A DNA stretch of 64,000 nt from Escherichia coli (GTDB taxonomy: Bacteria > Pseudomonadota > Gammaproteobacteria > Enterobacterales > Enterobacteriaceae): NCBI RefSeq assembly GCF_030013595.1, contig NZ_CP122768.1. One strand, given 5' to 3'. Each line of letters starts with the position of its first letter. Position 1 is the stretch's first letter. The notes under the pieces were generated by a model. That model was not told the DNA's origin, made no database searches, and saw only the letters and a program-made list of their open reading frames with translations. The position numbers were made by a program, and so were the translations under genes. Positions 18,399-30,268 of the stretch are shown in pieces.

Positions 18399-19121
18399 CT
18401 AAACGATGCGGCAGGCGTCGGCTTCCCAGCGGTAACCGACGCCGTAAACGGCGCGGATAAATGACTGTTCGGCGTCGAGAGATTCCAGCTTGCGGCGCAG
18501 GTTTTTAATGTGGCTGTCGATGGTGCGGTCGGTTACTACGCGGTAGTCGTCATAAAGATGATTGAGCAAATGCTCGCGGGAGAACACTTTTCCTGGTTCA
18601 TGAGAGAGCGTTTTCAGCAGACGAAATTCCGCAGGCGTCAGGTCAAGCATTTTACCGCGCCATGAAGCCTGAAAACGACCTTCGTCGATAATCAACGGGC
18701 TTTCAGCATCCTGTTGCTGCAACTCGCGCTGCGGTTTGCAACGGCGCAAAATGGTTTTGACGCGCGCTACCACTTCCCGTGGGCTGTACGGCTTACAGAT
18801 ATAATCATCTGCGCCAATCTCCAGCCCCAGCAGGCGATCGATCTCTTCGATTTTTGCCGTCACCATCACGATCGGAATGTCAGAAAAACGACGAATTTCC
18901 CGGCACAGCGTCAGGCCATCGGTGCCAGGGAGCATCAGATCTAACAGGATCAGATCCGGTGGTGTCTGGCGCACATACGGCAGTACCTGATCGCCGTGGC
19001 TGATAAGCGTCGGCGCATAGCTCGCAGCACGCAGATAATCAATGAGCAACTGCCCCAGCTTCGGTTCATCTTCCACGATCAAAATACGCGGTGTGTTTTC
19101 GTCGATTGGTAACTCGGTCAT
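18399..19121 (-). CDS. baeR: OmpR-family response regulator
   Basis: 240-aa ORF with a receiver domain (ILIVEDEP...[11 protein letters not shown]) and a winged-helix C-terminus. Confidence 0.92.
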
Positions 19122-20521
19122 ACTTCTCTCTGTAAATCCCGTTCCAGCGGTAACTCTACTGTAATGCTTACCCCGCCAAAAGGCGAATGGGCAGCAATAA
19201 TGCGACCATTATGTGCTTCAACAATGTTCAGGCAAATCGCCAGCCCCAGCCCGGAACCGCCGCTGGCACGGTTGCGGGAACCTTCGGTGCGATAAAAACG
19301 TTCAAACAATTTTTGTAGCTGATCGTCACTGACACCTGGCGCACTGTCGGCAAAGGTCAGGCGCACCGTTTTGTCGCGCTGCCCGGCAGAGATTTGCAGG
19401 CTGCCGCCGCTGTCAGTGTAGCGCAGGCTGTTTTCCAGTAAGTTATTGAATAACTGCATTAAACGGTCGCGATCGCCAAATACGGTAATACTGTCTGGCA
19501 GGGAAAATTGCAGTTTCAGGCCACGACTGGCGAATCGTTCGCGAAATGCGCCGCCCGCCACTTCCAGCAGTGGGATCAAATCTACCGGTGCTTTTTGATA
19601 GGCGAGAGCGCCTTCATCAGACATCGACAACTGATGGAGATCGTCAACCAGTTTGGTCAGTGTACCGACCTCCGCCTGTAAAGACGCCACCGTCTCCGGC
19701 GTGAATTTACGCACGCCATCCTGAATGGCTTCCAGTTCACCGCGCAGCACCGCTAATGGCGTACGCAGTTCGTGAGAAATATCGGCCATAAAATCGCGCC
19801 GCATTTGCTGGTTTTTCTCCAGTGTGCTGGCAAGCTGGTTGAAGTCTTGCGCCAGTTTGCCCAGTTCATCTTCACTGGTGGGCGTTACGCGGGTAGTGAA
19901 ATCGCCCGCCGCCAGTTTGTGCGTGCCATCGACAAGTCGTTTTACCGGTGCCAGTAAACCGCGCGCCAGCAGAAAAGTGGCAAGTGCCGCGAGTAACGTT
20001 GCCAGGGCGACAATCAACCAGCTGGTTTGCCGCTGTTGTTTATCGAAATTGATATCAGTATTGCGCGTTAACCGCTCAACGGGGGAGGCGATCACCGCGC
20101 CAACTTCCGCACCGTTGACCAGAATGGGTCGCCGTGTACCGTCAGGTGGAATCGGCGCTCGCGGACCAACCAGCACTTTGTTGTTTTGATCAACCACCCA
20201 GAACTGGGTACGCCAGCCGTGCGGTGGCATACCCGGGCCGGGTTTATCTTCCGAATTATCGTGTTCAAATGAACGCAGGATCTGAAAGACAAAGCGATCA
20301 TTGTTGCGCAGGAAGCGCCAGTTGCCATGCTGCGCATACTGCTCGCCAAGCGCATCACTTAACAGTTGTAATCGCTGTTCATTACCATGCTTGATGTAAT
20401 CAATAAAGCCACGCTCAAAACTGATACGCACCGCCCAGTGCATACTGATCAGCAAGACAATGCAGGTGGCGAAAATCGCCAGAAACAGTTTGCCGGTAAT
20501 ACCGGGTCGCCAGAACTTCAT
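19118..20521 (-). CDS. baeS: envelope-stress sensor histidine kinase
   Basis: 467-aa ORF with two TM segments, HAMP, H-box ([11 protein letters not shown]) and ATPase G-boxes; 4-nt overlap with baeR. Confidence 0.92.
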
Positions 20522-21933
20522 TGCGCGCTCCTTTTTCGCCGCGAAATAGCTACATTTTGATGCGTATCGTTCGGCACTCTGGCAAAGATGAACGCCGGAA
20601 GGGCGATGATCAACGCCATGCTAAGCCAGGTGTACATAAAGACGGTTTGTGTGGTGCCGCTGTCGACGCTGACATGCTGTGAACCAAAAAGTCCCAGCAA
20701 CAGCCCGGCGATAGTGACGCCGATACTCATCGACAATTGCATAATCATCGACAGCAGGCTGTTGCCGCTGCTCGCCAGATTGTCCGGGAGATCTTTCAGC
20801 GTCAGGGTGTTCATGGAGGAGAAACGCGTCGAGTTGACCATCCCTTGTAAAAACAGGACGAACGGCAAAACGTAGTACCAGCCCAGCAGGGCGGTAGTCA
20901 TAAACAACAGGGTGACCAGCGACAGACCCAGCGTGGTCGCTACCAGTACCCGACGATAACCAAAGCGATTCACCACCTGTACCACAATTCGCTTCATTCC
21001 CATGCTGCCAAGCACCATCGGGATCATCATCAGTCCGGCATGAAACGGCGAGAAACGGAGGCCAATTTGCAGGAAAACCGGTGTCATAAAGGGCAACATG
21101 CCACTGCCAATACGTCCGGCAAAGCTCCCCGCCAGGCCCAGCGAAAAGGTACGAGTACGGAACAGTTTCAGACTGAACAGGGCACGGTTGTTATTTCTGG
21201 CGTGCAGCAGATAAAGCACCAGTGCCACCACGCCAACTGCGACCAGGCCTGCAATCGTCAGCGGCGATAAACCTGTACCTTTACTGCCGTCCAGCGCCAG
21301 GGTTAATACCGCCATGCCAACCGCCAGCAATAAAAATCCGGAGAGATCAAAGCGCCGCGTCTGCATGGTGTAGTTTGGCATTAACAGCAATGTGGCGATC
21401 GCACCGATAATCCCCACCGGAATGTTGATCAAAAAGATACAGTGCCACGATGCGTACTCCACCAGCAGACCGCCGAGCGCCGGACCGAGCAGCGGACCGA
21501 CCTGACCGGGTAACGTGACAAAGGTCATCGCCGCCATATATTGCTCGCGCGGTACGATTTTCATCACCGTCAATCTGCCGACCGGCACCATCATCGCGCC
21601 GCCAACGCCCTGTAACGCGCGTGCCAGCAACAGTTCGTTCAGCGTGCCGGAAAGCGCGCAAAACAGTGAACCGAGAGTAAACAGCACGATGGCGGTAAAG
21701 AAAATATTGCGCACGCCGACTTTGTCCGCCAGCCAGCCGCTGGCGGGCAGCATCACCGCCACGGTCAGCACATAAGAGACAATGACCATGTGCATATGCA
21801 ACGGACTTTCCCCGAGGCTTTGCGCCATTGAGGGAAGGGCGGTGTTTACGATGGTGGTGTCCAGCGACTGCATAAAGAAGCCGAAAGCCACAATCCACAA
21901 TTGCCAACGGGTGCTGTCGGGAAGATCTGTCAT
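20518..21933 (-). CDS. mdtD: MFS-type multidrug efflux transporter
   Basis: 471-aa polytopic ORF; operon position between mdtC and baeS. Confidence 0.9.
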
Positions 21934-24900
21934 TTACTCGGTTACCGTTTGTTTAGGTTTACGCGAAAAACGCAGCCGCAGACGGTCGAAAAAGAGATAC
22001 ACCACCGGCGTGGTATACAGCGTAAGGAGCTGGCTCATTACCAGTCCGCCGACAATGGTGATCCCCAGGGGTTGCCGCAGCTCCGAGCCGTCGCCGCCCG
22101 ACAATACCAGCGGCAGCGCACCAAACAGCGCCGCCAGGGTAGTCATCATAATCGGGCGAAAACGCAGCAGACAGGCCTGGAAAATAGCTTCCTGCGGCGT
22201 CAGGTTACCGTGCCGTTGGGCTTCAAGCGCAAAATCGACCATCATAATGGCGTTTTTCTTCACGATGCCGATTAATAGCATGATCCCTATCAGGGCGATT
22301 AGGCTGAACGGGGCATTGAACAGCTCCAGCGCCAACAGCGCTCCAACGCCCGCCGAGGGCAGGGTGGAGAGAATCGTCAGCGGATGTACGTAACTCTCGT
22401 AAAGGATACCCAGCACGATATACACCGTGGCGATGGCGGCGATAATCAGGATCACCTGCGAGTTCATCGTCTCCTGGAACACCTGCGCCGTGCCGGCAAA
22501 ACTGCCGCGCACCGTCGAAGGCACACCAAGCTGGGTCATTGCGCGATCGATCGCCGCACTGGCGTCCGAGAGCGATTTTCCGGTCGGCAGGTTAAACGAA
22601 ATGGTCGAGGCCGCCGATAATCCCTGATGATTCACCGATAGTGGGGCATTCGCCGGTTGCCATTTAGCGAAATACGACAGCGGGATCGCTTTGCCTTCGT
22701 TATTGATAACGAACATTTTTTCCAGCGCACTGATGTCCTGGGTATAGCGCGGATCCACTTCCATCACCACTTTATACTGGTTCATCGGCTGGTAAATGGT
22801 CGAGATTTGCCGCTGACCGAAGGCGTTATTTAACAGACTGTTGGCGGCTTGTACGTCGATTCCCAGCCGTGCCATGGTGTCGCGGTCGTAAACCAGATTC
22901 ATCTCCGCGCCGTTATCCTGCTGATCGGAGTTCACGTCCGCCAGTTCCGGCAACGTCGCCAGTTTTTTGCGGATTTTCGGCTCCCATTCTCGCAGTGCCG
23001 CCAGGTCGTCGGATAACAACGTGTACTGGTAGCTGGCGTTCGACTGACGCCCACCAACGCGAATATCCTGTACCGCCATCAGGAACAGATTCGCCCCCGG
23101 TTCTTTCGCCAGTTTTACGCGCAGACGGTCGATAATTTGCTGCGCCGTTTCGCTGCGTTCGTCGCGTGGCTTGAGGGTGATAAACATCATCCCGCTGTTC
23201 ACTCGCGAACCGCCTGTAAAGCCGGTGACATTATCCACTGCCGGATCGTCACGGATAATTTTCATGAAATCCTGCAACTTACCGCGCATCGCCTGAAACG
23301 AAATACTCTGATCCGCCTGAATCCCGCCCATCAACACGCCAGTGTCCTGCTCCGGGAAGAAGGTTTTCGGGATCGAGATATACAGCCAGATATTCAGCGC
23401 AATGGTGCCAAGCAGCACCACGCCCACCAGACGGGTATGATTGAGCACCCATTTCAGTGACTTGCCGTAGCCTTGTTGCAGGGCTACCAACATGCGACCA
23501 AAACCACGCAGTCGCTTTTGCTCGCGCGGCTTGCTGGCTTTCAGCATCCAGCCACACATCATTGGCGTTAATGTCAGAGAAACCAGCAACGATATACCAA
23601 TGGCGACAGAAAGCGTCACGGCAAATTCGCGTAACAGTCGGCCCGGCAATCCGCCCATCAACAGCAGCGGCAGGAACACCGCCACCAGTGACAGACTCAT
23701 CGACAGCACCGTAAAACCGACTTCGCGAGTACCTTGCAGTGCGGCTTGCAACGGTTTCATTCCCGCTTCCAGATGACGTGCAATGTTTTCCAGCACCACG
23801 ATGGCGTCATCCACCACGAAACCAGTAGCGATGGTGAGCGCCATTAACGAAAGGTTATTGAGACTGAATCCGCACAGGTACATCGCCGCAAACGTACCAA
23901 TCAGCGAAACCGGCACCGAAACGGCGGGAATAATAGTGGCGCGACCCGAGCGCAGGAATAAAAACACCACCAGAATCACCAGCGCCACCGAGATAATCAG
24001 CGTTTGCTCGACTTCTTCCAGCGAGGCGCGAATGGTGGGGGAGCGATCCTGGGCAATTTGCAGATCAATCGCCGCCGGAATGGTTTCCTGCAACTCCGGT
24101 AATTTTGCCCGGATGCTGTCAACCGTCTGGATAATATTGGCTTCCGGCAGTTTGCGGATCATCAGTAAAATAGCCGGTTTGGCGTTGGTCATCCCGGCGT
24201 TGCGCACATCCTGCACTGAGTCGGTCACCGTCGCCACATCGCCCAGACGAACCGCGCCGCCGTTGTTGTAGTGAATAATCAACGGCTGATATTCAGCGGC
24301 GGTTTTTAGCTCATCATTGGTCTGGATCTGCCAGCGGTGAGTGCCATCTTCCAGCGCGCCCTGCGGTTTACGCACGTTGGCATTGCTGACGGCGGTGCGT
24401 ACGTCGTCCAGCGACACGCCCTGATTAAACAGCGCCTGCGGATTCAGCCCGACGCGTACGGCGGGCAGTGAGCTGCCTCCGACATCGACATCACCAACAC
24501 CGTCGATTTGCGAAATCGTCGGAGCCAGCTGCGTCGAGGCGAAATCGTACAGTTCACCCTGCGAATAAGTATCGGACGTCAGCGTGAGGATCATAATTGG
24601 TGCATCCGACGGGTTCGCTTTGCGATAGGTCGGGCGGCTGGGCATCCCACTGGGCAGCAAACTTTGTGCAGCGTTGATCGCCGCCTGCACATCACGCGCT
24701 GCGCCGTTGATATCCCGGTCAAAATCAAACTGCAAAATAATACGCGTGCTGCCGAGCGAACTGCTGGAGGTCATTTCACTGACTCCGGCAATGCGCCCAA
24801 GTGAGCGCTCCAGCGGCGTGGCAACGGAAGACGCCATTGTTTCTGGTGACGCACCGGGCAGCGAGGCGCTGACCATAATCACCGGAAAATCGACCTGCGG

Positions 24901-25011
24901 CAGCGGGGCGACCGGCAGCATACGGAAGCCCAGTATGCCGCACAGGGTAATGGCAACCGACAGTAAAATCGTCGCCACCGGACGGTAAATGAAGAGGGCA
25001 AAAAACTTCAC
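21934..25011 (-). CDS. mdtC: RND multidrug efflux pump subunit
   Basis: 1025-aa ORF of AcrB/RND topology; recognised as MdtC. Confidence 0.92.
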
Positions 25012-28000
25012 TTACGCCTCCTCTTCATGACGGGCAAAGCGGCTTTTGGTCCACAATGCCAGGCGGTCGAACAGCAGATAAATCACCGGCGTGGTGAACA
25101 GCGTCAGCACCTGGCTGACAATCAGGCCGCCGACCATGCCGATACCTAACGGACGACGCAGTTCCGCGCCGACCCCGGTACTCAACATCAGCGGCAGCGC
25201 GCCAAGCAGAGCCGCCAGGGTGGTCATCAGGATCGGACGAAAACGCAACAGACAAGCCTGGTAGATTGCCTCGCGCGGCGACATGCCTTGCTCGCGCTCG
25301 GCAGCCAGCGCGAAGTCGATCATCATGATGGCGTTCTTCTTCACGATACCGATCAGCAAAATAATGCCGATAATCGCAATCACATCCAGTTCGCTACCAG
25401 CAATCAGCAACGCCAGCAGTGCGCCAACCCCTGCGGTGGGTAGCGTCGAGAGAATGGTGATCGGGTGAATAAAGCTCTCGTACAGAATGCCGAGCACGAT
25501 ATACATCGCCACCACCGCCGCGACAATCAGCCAGACAGTGCTGCCCAGCGCCGACTGGAAGGCGAGGGTGCTGCCCTGGAACTGCGTGGTGATATCCACC
25601 GGCAGATTCAGCGTCTTTTCGGTGTCCATAATCGCCTGCACCGCATCGCCCAGCGAATAGTTATCCGGCACGTTAAAGGAGATGGTCGTTACCGGGAACT
25701 GATCCAGATGGTTGATGGAGAGCGGCGCAAAACGCTGCTCAATTTTGGCAATTGAGCTTAGCGGCACCACGCCGCCGTCGCTGCTGGTCAGGCGAATGGT
25801 ATCCAGCGCCGCGAGGCCTGGGGTATTTTCGGTGTTGTGCTCCAGCACCACGCGATACTGGTTGGCCTGAGTATAAATAGTGGAAATCAGCCGCTGACCA
25901 AACGCGTTGTACAGGGCGTTATCGACATCCGCCATGCTGATCCCCAGACGGCTGGCGCTGTCGCGATCAACATTGACATACGCCACCAGCCCTTTGTCCT
26001 GCCAGTCGCTGGAGACATCAGAAAGCTGTGGCAGTTGCTGGAGTTTTTCCATCAACTGTGGCACCCAGGTACTGAGCGCATCCAGTGACGTGGCCTGCAA
26101 GGTAAACTGGTACTGGGTGCGGCTGACCTGAGTATCAATAGTCAGATCCTGCGTTGGTTGCAGGAAGAGATCGACGCCCGGCACTTTATCTACCGCCGTT
26201 TGCAGACGGGCGATGACTTTTTGCACCCGATCATCACGTTCATCCAACGGTTTGAGGTTGATTTGTAAACGTGCACTGTTCAGCGACGGGTTAGTGCCAT
26301 CAACGCCAACAAATGAGGTCAGGCTTTGCACTGCCGGATCCTGCAAAATCACGTCCGCGACCTGGCGTTGTCGCTGGGCCATATTGGCAAAGGAGCTGGA
26401 TTGCGGTGCCTGCAAAGTGCCCTGAATAATGCCATTGTCCTGTACCGGGAAGAAACCTTTCGGAATGAACACCCACAGCAGCACGCTAAGCAGCAGCGTG
26501 CTGAGTGCCACGCTTAAGGTCAGCCACGGATGATTCAGCACTTTCGCCAGTCCACGACCATAGGCGGCGATTATCCTGTCGAACATTTTTTCCGAGGCAC
26601 GGGAGAAGCGGTTCTGTTTACGCAACGACTCCTGGCTGAGCATCCGCGCGCACATCATCGGTGTCAGGGTCAGCGACACCACCGCTGAGATCAAAATCGC
26701 TACCGCCAGGGTAATAGCAAATTCGCGGAACAGTCGCCCGACGATATCGCCCATAAACAGCAGTGGGATCAACACCGCAATCAGCGAGAAGGTCAGCGAG
26801 ATAATGGTAAAGCCGATTTCACCTGCGCCCTTGAGCGCCGCCGCCAACGGTTTTTCGCCTTTTTCGATATAGCGGGAAATGTTTTCGATCACCACGATGG
26901 CGTCATCGACCACGAATCCGGTGGCGATAGTTAACGCCATCAGCGTCAGGTTATTGATTGAAAAATCGAGAAACACCATGACCGCGAAGGTGCCGATTAA
27001 CGACAGCGGCACTGCGAAGCCGGGAATGATGGTCGCCGGAATATTGCGCAAAAACAGGTAGATAATCATGACTACCAGCGCGATAGCCATCATCAATTCA
27101 AACTGGGTATCGTTGACCGATGCGCGGATATTGGTGGTGCGATCGGAAAGCACTGTTACCTTCACCGATTTCGGCAGACTCTCGGTGAGCTGTGGCAGCA
27201 TCTGCCGGATGCTGTCGGCGGTGGAGATAATGTTAGCACCGGGCTGGCGCTGAACATTCATCACAATGGCCTGTTCTTTGTTCGCCCATGCGCCAAGCCA
27301 GCTGTTTTCTGCACCTTGCTCTACGGTTGCGACATCGCCAAGACGAATCGGCGCGCCGTTCTGGTAGGCGATGATTAGCTGGCGATACTCTTCGGCGGAT
27401 TGCATCTGGTCGTTCGCGGAAAGCGTGACCGCACGGGAAGGGCCGTCGAGGCTACCTTTTGCCGAGTTAACGTTAGCGCCGGTAATGGCGGTGCGCACGG
27501 TTTCGCTGGTCAGGCCGAGGGCGGCAATCGCCTGAGCGTTAAGTTTGACGCGAACAGCCGGACGCTGACCGCCGGAAAGCGTCACCAGGCCGACGCCGGA
27601 AATCTGCGAGATTTTCTGCGCGACGCGGGTTTCCACCATATCTTCCACTTGCGTCATCGGCATGGCGGTTGAGGTGACGGCGAGCGTCATGATCGGCGGA
27701 TCTGCCGGGTTCACTTTGCTGTAAACCGGCGGGTTAGGCAGATCGCTCGGTAGCAGGTTAGTGGCGGCGTTAATCGCGGCCTGCACTTCCTGCTCGGCGA
27801 CATCGAGCGGTAATGTTAGCTGGAACTGTAAGGTGATAACTGACGCACCGCCGGAACTTTGCGACGACATCTGTTTCAGGCCAGACATCTGCCCGAACTG
27901 GCGTTCTAGCGGCGCGGTAACGGCAGAGGTCATGACATCCGGGCTGGCACCTGGGTAGAGCGTGACCACCTGAATGGTCGGATAGTCCACTTCCGGCAGC

Positions 28001-28134
28001 GCCGAAACGGGCAGGGCGCGATAACCGATAATCCCGGCGAGTAAGATCGCCACCATCAGCAGCGTGGTGGCCACAGGACGCATAATAAACAGGCGCGACG
28101 GGCCGCCTGTGCTGCTCGGGGGTAACACCTGCAT
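25012..28134 (-). CDS. mdtB: RND multidrug efflux pump subunit
   Basis: 1040-aa ORF ([26 protein letters not shown]...) recognised as MdtB. Confidence 0.92.
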
Positions 28135-29381
28135 CAGGAGCGTGCTCCTTTTTTCGCGTATTCGCGGCTGGTGGCTTTCTCTTCCGGAGTAGTGGCGCTC
28201 TGGGCTTCCACCACTTCCACTTTCGCCCCTTCGGTCAGGCGATCAATGCCGTCTGTCACCACGCGATCGCCCGCAGAAATACCTGCACGGATCACCACTT
28301 TCTGACTGTCCTGAATGCCCGGCGTCACCAGATGTTTGCTGACCTTGTTTTCGCTATTCAGCACCCAGACAAAATGGCCTTCATTGCCCATTTGCAGGGC
28401 GGCTGTTGGGATCACTACGGCGTTTTGTTCGGTGTCGACTAACATGCGCGCGTTAACAAACTGATTGGGAAACAGCGCATCATCCTGATTATTAAAGCGT
28501 GCTTTCACTTTAATCGTACCGGTAGTGGCATCGATTTGGTTATCTAGACTTAACAGCGTGCCTTCACTTAATTTCTTCGAGTTGGTGCGATCCCAGGCTT
28601 CTACCACCAGCGGTTTTCCGGCTTTCTGCGCCTGCACTACGGTAGCGATATCGCTTTCCGGCAGGGTAAAGACTAAATCGATAGGATGCGTCTGGGTGAT
28701 CACCACGATCCCGGTGGTATCACCACTGGAGATTTGGTTACCAACATCAACCTGCTTGAGACCAACGCGACCATCGACTGGTGCGGTAATCCGGCTCCAG
28801 TCGAGTTGCAGCTGCGCGCTGGCAACGCTTGCTTCATCAGCCTTAATGGTGCCTTCGGTTTCACTGACCAGCGCCTGTTGGGCATCCAGCTCCTGGCGGG
28901 AAACGAGATTGGTTTTTGCCAGTTGTTGATAACGCGCCAGGTCACGGCGGGCGTTGGCAAGCGTGGCTTTATCTTTTGCCAGTTGGCCCTGGGCTTGTGC
29001 TAATGCAACTTTGAACTGGCTGGGGTCAATTTCTGCCAGTAAATCGCCTGCTTTGACCTGCTGGCCTTCCTGGAAATGTAACGCTATCAGTTGGCCGTCC
29101 ACGCGGCTGCGCACCGTAACGGTATTAGCGGCGGTAATGGTGCCAAGCCCGGTGAGGTAACGCGGAACTGCCTGTTCTACGGCGGTCGCCGCCTGAACCG
29201 GGGCTAATGGGCCGGAACGCATACCACGTCGACCACCCGCTGGCGATTGCTGCGCTTGTTTCGTCGCCCCTGGGGCTGCACTCCGGGAGTCATTGCGGCC
29301 TTGCCAGAACCAGAATGCGGCGATGGCGGCGATAACCACCACGATTACGATTACCCAACGGGATTTATAACTACCTTTCAT
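28134..29381 (-). CDS. mdtA: RND efflux periplasmic adaptor (membrane fusion protein)
   Basis: ORF track extends to 29528; the internal ATG at 29381 ([23 protein letters not shown]...) gives 415 aa; stop overlaps the mdtB start. Confidence 0.88.
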
Positions 29382-29434
29382 CGTTAAGAGTTTCTCTTCC
29401 TGAAACGTTTCGCGGAATGATACTAGTGTAGCCA

Positions 29435-29452
29435 GCCAATAAGGGAGAAAAA
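29435..29452 (-). promoter_or_regulatory. candidate BaeR binding box in the mdtA promoter
   Basis: Minus-strand TTTTTCTCCCTTATTGGC, about 55-70 nt upstream of the mdtA start, closely matches the BaeR box consensus (TTTTTCTCCATDATTGGC) as I recall it. Confidence 0.5.
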
Positions 29453-29599
29453 TGGAGGAATTATGAAACACTGTCTGGAATCGTCTGAATGACGGGCACA
29501 TTTGCGAGCACGCATCCAGTAATAACACAGGAAACTATTTTATCTACGCGTTAGCGATAGACTGCTTGCATGGCGAAAGGAGGTAAGCCGACGATTTCA

Positions 29600-29740
29600 G
29601 CGGGACGCTGAAACGGGAAAGCCCCTCCCGAGGAAGGGGCCATAAATAAGGAAAGGGTCATGATGAAGCTACTCATCATCGTGGTGCTCTTAGTCATAAG
29701 CTTCCCCGCTTACTAAGACTACCAGGGCGGGGGAAACCCC
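29600..29740 (-). ncRNA. sibB: Sib-type antisense sRNA (antitoxin of ibsB); approximate bounds
   Basis: Established arrangement: Sib RNAs are transcribed antisense across ibs ORFs. A minus-strand hairpin plus T-rich tract lies near 29600-29640. Bounds not verifiable here. Confidence 0.35.
29660..29716 (+). CDS. ibsB: type I toxin, small hydrophobic peptide
   Basis: 18-codon ORF encoding MMKLLIIVVLLVISFPAY preceded by AAGGAAAGGG; matches the Ibs toxin family. Confidence 0.7.
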   Translation: MMKLLIIVVLLVISFPAY

Positions 29741-29929
29741 GCTCTACCCTCACTCCTGAAAGTATGCCTTCACGATAAGATTGTCAATCCGCAGGCTTTG
29801 TAGTCTGCGATCCTGCCAGCAAATATTCTTTGCGAGTCGTTACGCAATAATCACAGAGGAAACTATTTTATTCACGCGTTAGCGATAGACTGCATTCAGG
29901 GCGAAAGGAGGTAAGCCGATGATTTCAGC

Positions 29930-30070
29930 GGGACGCTGAAACGGGAAAGCCTCTCCCGGAGAAGAGGGCTTTTAATAAGGAAAGGGTTATGATGAAGCAC
30001 GTCATCATACTGGTGATACTCTTAGTGATTAGCTTCCAGGCTTACTAAGAACACCAGGGGGAGGGGGAAA
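29930..30070 (-). ncRNA. sibA: Sib-type antisense sRNA (antitoxin of ibsA); approximate bounds
   Basis: Second copy of the repeat unit; inferred by analogy with the first copy. Confidence 0.35.
29989..30048 (+). CDS. ibsA: type I toxin, small hydrophobic peptide
   Basis: 19-codon ORF encoding MMKHVIILVILLVISFQAY preceded by AAGGAAAGGG. Confidence 0.7.
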   Translation: MMKHVIILVILLVISFQAY

Positions 30071-30268
30071 CCTCTCCCTAACCCTCACTCCTGAAATTAT
30101 GTCACTCCGCCCTTAGTGTCAATCGACGGCTCTCCGTTCTTGCGAGGCGAATAGCAAAATTTTCTGCGCCGCCGGGCCTAATTCTGAAAGTTTCTTCGTT
30201 TGCTCTTATTTCATTATTGCAGTCGGTATGATACCGGACCTCGATAATTCTCTAAGAAAGGATTTCTT

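Follow-up and report, generated by a model that had tools for sequence, protein, structure and literature searches.

The window, by which we mean the whole 64-kb stretch of DNA that was analysed, carries the mdtABCD-baeSR operon on its minus strand. A stretch of 501 nt around the BaeR box discussed below is 100% identical to E. coli K-12 MG1655, and a 501-nt piece of NC_000913.3 maps exactly onto the window. Provided that the two are collinear throughout, the window corresponds to NC_000913.3 2119397-2183396 in reverse complement, with the box at 2153945-2153962. The genes of the operon are the following:

28134..29381, minus strand: mdtA (415 aa; RefSeq start 2154016; NCBIfam MdtA/MuxA equivalog, 722 bits)
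28134..25012, minus strand: mdtB (open reading frame and RefSeq annotation)
25011..21934, minus strand: mdtC (open reading frame and RefSeq annotation)
21933..20518, minus strand: mdtD (open reading frame and RefSeq annotation)
20521..19118, minus strand: baeS (open reading frame and RefSeq; NCBIfam equivalog match)
19121..18399, minus strand: baeR (open reading frame and RefSeq; NCBIfam equivalog, 449 bits)

MdtA, BaeS and BaeR each score above the respective NCBIfam equivalog cut-off. Over its full length BaeR matches PDB entry 4b09 (528.7 bits), and its C-terminal DNA-binding domain, a winged-helix domain of the OmpR/PhoB type as is expected of a regulator acting at a class II activator site, matches the domain structures of PhoB, CpxR and AdeR at about 50-54 bits. 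The AdeR family model matches BaeR with 153 bits; for the DNA-binding domain, the scores put AdeR no nearer to BaeR than PhoB or CpxR. A separate transcript of b2079/b2080 (baeR and the next gene) starts at 2164245 (about 19275 in the window) in the SMRT-Cappable-seq data, apart from the mdtA promoter. Between yegL and mdtA, two Sib antitoxin RNAs (Rfam RF00113; 142 and 149.5 bits) occupy 29645-29787 and 29974-30122 on the minus strand, overlapped on the plus strand by the ibsB and ibsA toxin reading frames. The Rfam SibB match (29787..29645) and the RefSeq sibB (29751..29616 in the window) are about 30 nt out of register.

Upstream of mdtA, the minus strand reads ...TTTCATAATTCCTCCATTTTTCTCCCTTATTGGCTGGCTACACTAGTATCATTCCGCGAAACGTTTCAGGAAGAGAAACTCTTAACGATG and contains the 18-mer TTTTTCTCCCTTATTGGC at 29452..29435, i.e., 54-71 nt 5' of the mdtA ATG (29381). 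The earlier note on this DNA, made from the sequence alone, had described a near-consensus BaeR box at this place, some 55-70 nt upstream of mdtA and one mismatch from the BaeR consensus, and its sequence, coordinates and distance agree with what we find. The consensus of Nishino et al. 2005, in the form quoted in PMC3799227 and PMC3915751, is 5'-TTTTTCTCCATDATTGGC-3'; the form behind the earlier note proved correct when compared with these quotations, and the mdtA box matches the consensus in 17 of its 18 positions, the sole mismatch being a C for A in position 10. Within 3 mismatches of the consensus, the 64-kb window has this site and no other (0.15 matches expected), and none of 100 dinucleotide-preserving shuffles matched TTTTTCTCCATDATTGGC with one mismatch or fewer. 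Closeness to the consensus is nevertheless not independent evidence and is partly circular, since the mdtA site helped to define it. The K-12 boxes of spy (TTTTTCTCCATAATTGGC), acrD (TTTTTCTCCACGATTGGC) and mdtA (TTTTTCTCCCTTATTGGC) match the consensus in 18, 17 and 17 of the 18 positions, respectively; TTTTTCTCCATDATTGGC is the majority sequence of the three sites, and its "D" stands for their A, G and T. The mdtA box is thus a rediscovered founding member of the published BaeR motif, already known for E. coli K-12, and the site in an mdtA fusion has been called "well characterised" (PMC3160322). It is set out here together with the repeat that it contains:

29435..29452, minus strand: BaeR box (18-mer TTTTTCTCCCTTATTGGC), in which ATTGGC comes after the repeat R3; among 80 species, conservation is confined to the 7 nt at its 5' end
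29442..29447, minus strand: R3, CTCCCT, core repeat of the box, offset by 10 bp downstream from the repeat R2 (see below); low column information

An alternative BaeR box, the TCTNCANAA direct repeat of Yamamoto et al. 2008, is quoted in PMC3799227. Its best match inside the mdtA box is TCTCCCTTA at 29448..29440, a weak one with 2 mismatches. R2 was absent from a scan for TCTNCANAA at up to 2 mismatches; by eye, R2 reads CCTCCATTT, with 3 mismatches. For ycaC, the reported fourth target of BaeR, nothing in the 316-nt upstream region resembles the 18-mer to within 5 mismatches, and the gene is thus of no help in defining the motif.

We take the transcription start of thrL to be at 148. The SMRT-Cappable-seq table gives it as 147 and hence appears to be 0-based. 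Supplementary Data 2 of that data set, mapped without BaeR induction, provides two starts for b2074, 2153978 and 2153986, and the table has no entry for spy or acrD. The two starts and the hexamers that precede them are located as follows:

29410..29418, minus strand: mdtA transcription starts A29418 and A29410 (each +/-1 nt), with 5' UTRs of about 37 and 29 nt
29425..29430, minus strand: -10 hexamer TACACT of promoter P1, 7 nt 5' of the start at ~29418, invariant save for its third base
29417..29422, minus strand: -10 hexamer TATCAT of promoter P2, 7 nt 5' of the start at ~29410, conserved in 74 of 79 species

Each hexamer occupies positions -12 to -7 relative to its start, and that of P1 reads TAAACT in most other genera. 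The -35 position of P1 (ATTTTT) is poor. The box covers positions -34 to -17 of P1 and -42 to -25 of P2. ATTGGC was considered as a -35 element and rejected: TTGGCT matches TTGACA in 4 of 6 positions but lies 3 or 11 nt from the mdtA -10 hexamers, and in spy and acrD it lies 13 nt from the hexamer. The only match of the sigma-70 scan, TTCAGA-18-CATAAT (29489..29460, minus strand), was likewise rejected as the main promoter, as such matches were no more numerous than in shuffles (mean 1.1) and this one has no mapped start; it overlaps the conserved upstream block and the repeat R1, both described below. For the CpxR consensus GTAAA-N5-GTAAA, only 3-mismatch matches occur, and we claim no CpxR site.

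These transcripts also bear on the start codon of mdtA. The program-made list of reading frames contains a long ORF of 464 aa that begins at GTG 29528 and runs through the promoter (28134-29528, minus strand). Both mapped starts lie downstream of this GTG and upstream of ATG 29381, so that the long ORF is not translatable from these transcripts. The MdtA match starts with residue 1 in each of the 80 orthologous loci taken from other species of the Enterobacteriaceae, an ATG stands at the aligned mdtA start in all 81 loci when K-12 is included, and the MdtA family profile aligns from residue 4. The in-frame extension upstream of the ATG is variable in length, and in 49 of 79 species a stop codon precedes any alternative start. 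On the strength of the RefSeq start, the mapped starts, the conservation of the ATG and the variability of the extension, the long ORF was rejected as a gene: its first 49 codons are an artefact, and the mdtA start at ATG 29381 is secure. The earlier note had likewise preferred 29381 to the longer frame and had looked to a transcription start downstream of 29381 as evidence to the contrary; the starts at ~29418 and ~29410 are both upstream of it. The version suffix of the mdtA protein, NP_416578.2, might, we assume, reflect an earlier revision of the start.

Occupancy of the promoter by BaeR in vivo has been reported for MG1655, in which ChIP-exo detected two peaks upstream of mdtA (PMC7657598 Data Set S2):

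29430..29466, no strand assigned: ChIP-exo peak_5 (2153931-2153967; S/N 10.96; PMC7657598)
29399..29425, no strand assigned: ChIP-exo peak_6 (2153972-2153998; S/N 14.99; PMC7657598)

Peak_5 covers the whole mdtA box, taking in most of R1, all of R2 and R3, and ATTGGC. The stronger of the two, peak_6, lies on the -10 hexamers, the two transcription starts and the first part of the 5' UTR, and not over the box; it may represent RNA polymerase co-crosslinked with BaeR, or an additional contact. The 18-mer of spy sits between the two ChIP-exo peaks of that gene and inside neither, so that coverage by a peak is not base-pair-precise proof of contact. In the same study, deletion of baeR under 5% ethanol lowered the expression of mdtA, mdtB, mdtC, iceT (mdtD) and baeS by log2 4.0, 3.8, 3.6, 3.4 and 4.6, respectively, a drop of ~10-25-fold, and had no effect in plain LB (PMC7657598). 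The whole operon, the kinase gene with it, is thus induced in a BaeR-dependent manner, which supports autoregulation, and a review of the envelope-stress regulons counts "the mdt-bae operon" among four reported BaeR binding sites (PMC2731931). The mdtA site thus combines the sequence of a BaeR box with a position in the promoter of a BaeR-dependent gene and with occupancy in vivo, the last two known from the literature. The earlier note had read the box as support for BaeSR autoregulation of mdtABCD-baeSR; the ChIP-exo peak over the box and the loss of expression in the baeR deletion bear this out. Both this reading and that of the mdtA start are supported, although stronger evidence than the box alone exists for each.

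The conservation of the promoter was assessed with MAFFT, by aligning the 170 nt that precede the ATG in K-12 and in 79 other species of the Enterobacteriaceae. The segments that can be distinguished, and the two repeats upstream of the box, are as follows:

29491..29446, minus strand: from the upstream block through R1 and R2 to nucleotide 7 of the box, near-invariant
29470..29491, minus strand: conserved upstream block CATTCAGACGATTCCAGACAGT with CAGAC-N5-CAGAC, of high information across 80 species
29463..29468, minus strand: R1, TTTCAT, an upstream repeat resembling a half-site, near-invariant in 80 Enterobacteriaceae, starting 11 bp before R2
29452..29457, minus strand: R2, CTCCAT, invariant in the conservation profile and the most conserved core of the BaeR type
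29445..29432, minus strand: TCCCTTATTGGCTG, of low information, its first 11 nt being the last 11 nt of the box
29431..29416, minus strand: CTACACTAGTATCATT, with both -10 hexamers, near-invariant
around 29405..29390, minus strand: Shine-Dalgarno region, near-invariant

The starts of R1, R2 and R3 at 29468, 29457 and 29447 give periods of 11 and 10 bp, and the midpoint of R1-R2 falls near -42 of P1; a class II site is characterised by direct repeats of 10-11 bp period that overlap or replace the -35 element. R2 begins 27 nt before the start of TA[AC]ACT in 76 of 79 species, R3 being 17 nt away, and TCTCCCT, which contains R3, is present in 19 of 79 species, all of them Escherichia or Citrobacter. 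The 18-mer at up to 2 mismatches is restricted to Escherichia (6 of the 80 sequences scored, with K-12 counted), and most Citrobacter sequences have 3-4 mismatches. The sequence that best fits the consensus in Enterobacter, Klebsiella, Raoultella, Kluyvera and others is ATTTCCTCCATTTTTCCG, 10 bp further upstream. Variants of TTGGC (TTGAC, TTAGC) occur within Escherichia, and in the Citrobacter lineage the ATTGGC of mdtA has drifted to GTTCGC or GATGGC. The E. coli 18-mer, used as the query of a genome scan, would miss most enterobacterial mdtA promoters. Of 5426 complete E. coli genomes, 5416 have the promoter with at least 95% identity, and four sampled diverged alleles carry SNPs at 29492, 29476 and 29473 only, all at the conserved upstream block and 5' of the repeats; these alleles show no change in the box, in either -10 hexamer or in the 5' UTR.

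Comparison with the other E. coli boxes reveals a shared geometry. The boxes of spy, acrD and mdtA have the 18-mer motif in common and lie 5' of BaeR-induced genes for envelope stress or efflux. The box core of spy and acrD stands 27 nt upstream of TACACT and TACAGT, respectively, and a weaker pyrimidine repeat (TTTCTT and CTCCTT) lies 11 bp further upstream; mdtA shares both a CTCCA[T/C] core 27 nt upstream of TACA[CG]T and the weaker repeat 11 bp beyond it. The chance of finding one specified, half-degenerate hexamer at a fixed offset in two unrelated sequences would be roughly (2/4096)^2, an estimate rather than a computed test. In an alignment anchored on the -10 hexamer, the R1 position is filled by TTTCAT or TTCCAT in mdtA promoters, by TTTCTT in spy and by CTCCTT in acrD. 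The mdtA promoter differs in that its core at 27 nt is R2, which lies outside the core of the box, the full 18-mer being at 17 nt, and in that it has three phased repeats as opposed to two in spy and acrD.

Regulators of the OmpR/PhoB family bind head-to-tail to direct repeats spaced about one helical turn apart, and in the pho box of PhoB such tandem repeats replace the -35 element and end ~10 bp upstream of the -10. The mdtA promoter has the same design, with tandem direct repeats of 10-11 bp period, a poor -35 replaced by them, and an end of the array ~10 bp before the -10, and the DNA-binding domain of BaeR matches the PhoB domain structures 3t72 and 1gxp (53.8 and 53.7 bits). The recognition sequences differ (CTGTCAT in the pho box, CTCCAT at mdtA), and the contact of BaeR with sigma-70 region 4 is only presumed. 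In sequence, the repeats resemble the operators of AdeR (Acinetobacter) and DzrR (Dickeya/Burkholderia), two response regulators of efflux pumps; both operators precede an RND efflux operon and are built of CTCCA[C/T] direct repeats of 11-bp period. The DNase I footprint of DzrR is CGGTTCTCCATCATATCTCCATATT, with the conserved box CTCCATC-N2-A-N-CTCCAT, and the AdeR site in the crystal structure is AAGTGTGGAG-N-AAGTGTGGAG, or CTCCACACTT-N-CTCCACACTT on the other strand. The proteins and organisms differ from BaeR and E. coli, and R1 of mdtA is degenerate; the likeness, drawn by analogy, is one of how the site may work and not of family membership.

Taken together, we hold it highly probable that the 18-mer belongs to the operator from which the mdtABCD-baeSR promoter is activated by phosphorylated BaeR. 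BaeR, as an OmpR/PhoB-type response regulator encoded at the end of the operon, would thereby close a positive autoregulatory loop. It would bind head-to-tail on the pyrimidine-rich repeats R1, R2 and R3 (29468..29442), in the form of one dimer on R1-R2, one on R2-R3, or two dimers. The repeat array would stand in for the poor -35 (ATTTTT) and ends 10 bp upstream of TACACT, from where BaeR may recruit sigma-70 RNA polymerase as a class II activator, by a putative contact with the polymerase. Transcription would then proceed from ~29418 and/or ~29410, either of which could be the BaeR-dependent start, and translation would begin at ATG 29381. Judged from the alignment, the operator is probably larger than the marked 18 nt, reaching about 16 nt further upstream. 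Some findings sit less well with this account: the 3' 11 nt of the 18-mer, including ATTGGC, are poorly conserved outside Escherichia, as opposed to the ATTGGC of spy, which is kept in Salmonella and Citrobacter; the match to TCTNCANAA is weak; the mdtA transcription starts were mapped without BaeR induction; and the 18-mer of spy falls outside the ChIP-exo peaks.

Two readings would deny the box any part in binding BaeR. That the match is a functionless product of chance could appeal to the T-rich composition of the site and to nothing else; it is effectively refuted by the dinucleotide-preserving shuffles, by the location of the site inside a ChIP-exo peak, and by the invariance of the box in the sampled E. 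coli alleles while its flanks vary. Alternatively, the 18-mer might have been kept as core promoter, i.e., as the spacer and -35 region of P1 or P2, with BaeR acting elsewhere or indirectly. The overlap of the box with these regions of both promoters, and the position of peak_6 over the core promoter, are consistent with this view, but the box has no likeness to TTGACA at the correct spacing, TTGGCT being 3 or 11 nt from the -10 hexamers. Moreover, the 18-mer recurs at two other BaeR-regulated genes, and both BaeR occupancy and BaeR-dependent expression are documented (PMC7657598). We regard a purely core-promoter role as very improbable.

A different question is which of the repeats BaeR primarily recognises. 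The ancestral, principal site of the BaeR dimer may instead be R1-N5-R2 (TTTCAT AATTC CTCCAT, 29468..29452), centred near -42 of P1, the 18-mer being a lineage-specific extra of Escherichia and Citrobacter; the latter (R3 and ATTGGC), one turn nearer the promoter, may then add affinity or serve P2. R1 and R2 are near-invariant in the 80 species whereas 29445..29432 is not, and it is R2 that, in 76 of 79 species, shares with the spy and acrD cores the 27-nt distance to the -10 hexamer, R3 being at 17 nt. The 11-bp period agrees with the DzrR and AdeR sites, peak_5 begins at 29466 and so takes in the R1-R2 repeat, and the Escherichia variants (TTGAC, TTAGC) hit TTGGC. On the other hand, the proximal box, with ATTGGC in register, resembles the boxes of spy and acrD in 17 of 18 positions, far beyond chance, R1 (TTTCAT) is a partial copy of the core, and the conservation could stem from another factor or from promoter architecture. 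We would put the probability of the R1-R2 site as the principal one slightly short of even. In its broader form, the proposal is that the BaeR element for mdtA across the Enterobacteriaceae would be TTTCAT-N5-CTCCAT (29468..29452) and not the 18-mer, which would be a recent addition in Escherichia and Citrobacter, and that a CTCCA[T/C] direct repeat of 11-bp period, like those of AdeR and DzrR, would be the more apt description of the motif; this we advance tentatively, with more doubt than conviction. The R1-R2 reading is a refinement of the assignment of the BaeR box and does not contradict it. In the accessible literature, we found no paper that combines BaeR, "direct repeat", mdtA and spy, and nothing directly relevant on a BaeR direct repeat or an mdtA footprint.

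Control of MdtABC by BaeSR is a documented route to efflux tolerance of novobiocin, bile salts, indole, copper, zinc and tungstate. For E. coli K-12 the mdtA box itself adds nothing new, and the R1-R2 reading is the only modestly novel part. What is gained at this locus is that the consensus and the coordinates of the earlier note are accurate, that the start of mdtA is secure, and that the operator is probably longer on its upstream side.

The conserved upstream block CATTCAGACGATTCCAGACAGT matches neither the CpxR nor the BaeR consensus. The region upstream of ycaC (NC_000913.3 944500-946500) contains two copies of AAATTTCAT and an inverted repeat, CGTCTGA-N5-TCAGACG, which shares TTCAGACG with this block, probably by coincidence. 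Upstream of spy (NC_000913.3, ~1825744-1825781, within the segment 1825100-1825960), TACACT comes 14 nt after the BaeR 18-mer. The 18-mer, ATTGGC and the downstream hexamer of spy are kept in Salmonella and Citrobacter, the hexamer of Salmonella being TATACT, which is nearer to the -10 consensus. This arrangement suggests a separate upstream, BaeR-dependent promoter of spy, with a predicted start near 1825737 and a 5' UTR of ~112 nt, apart from the ATG-proximal region of peak_1.
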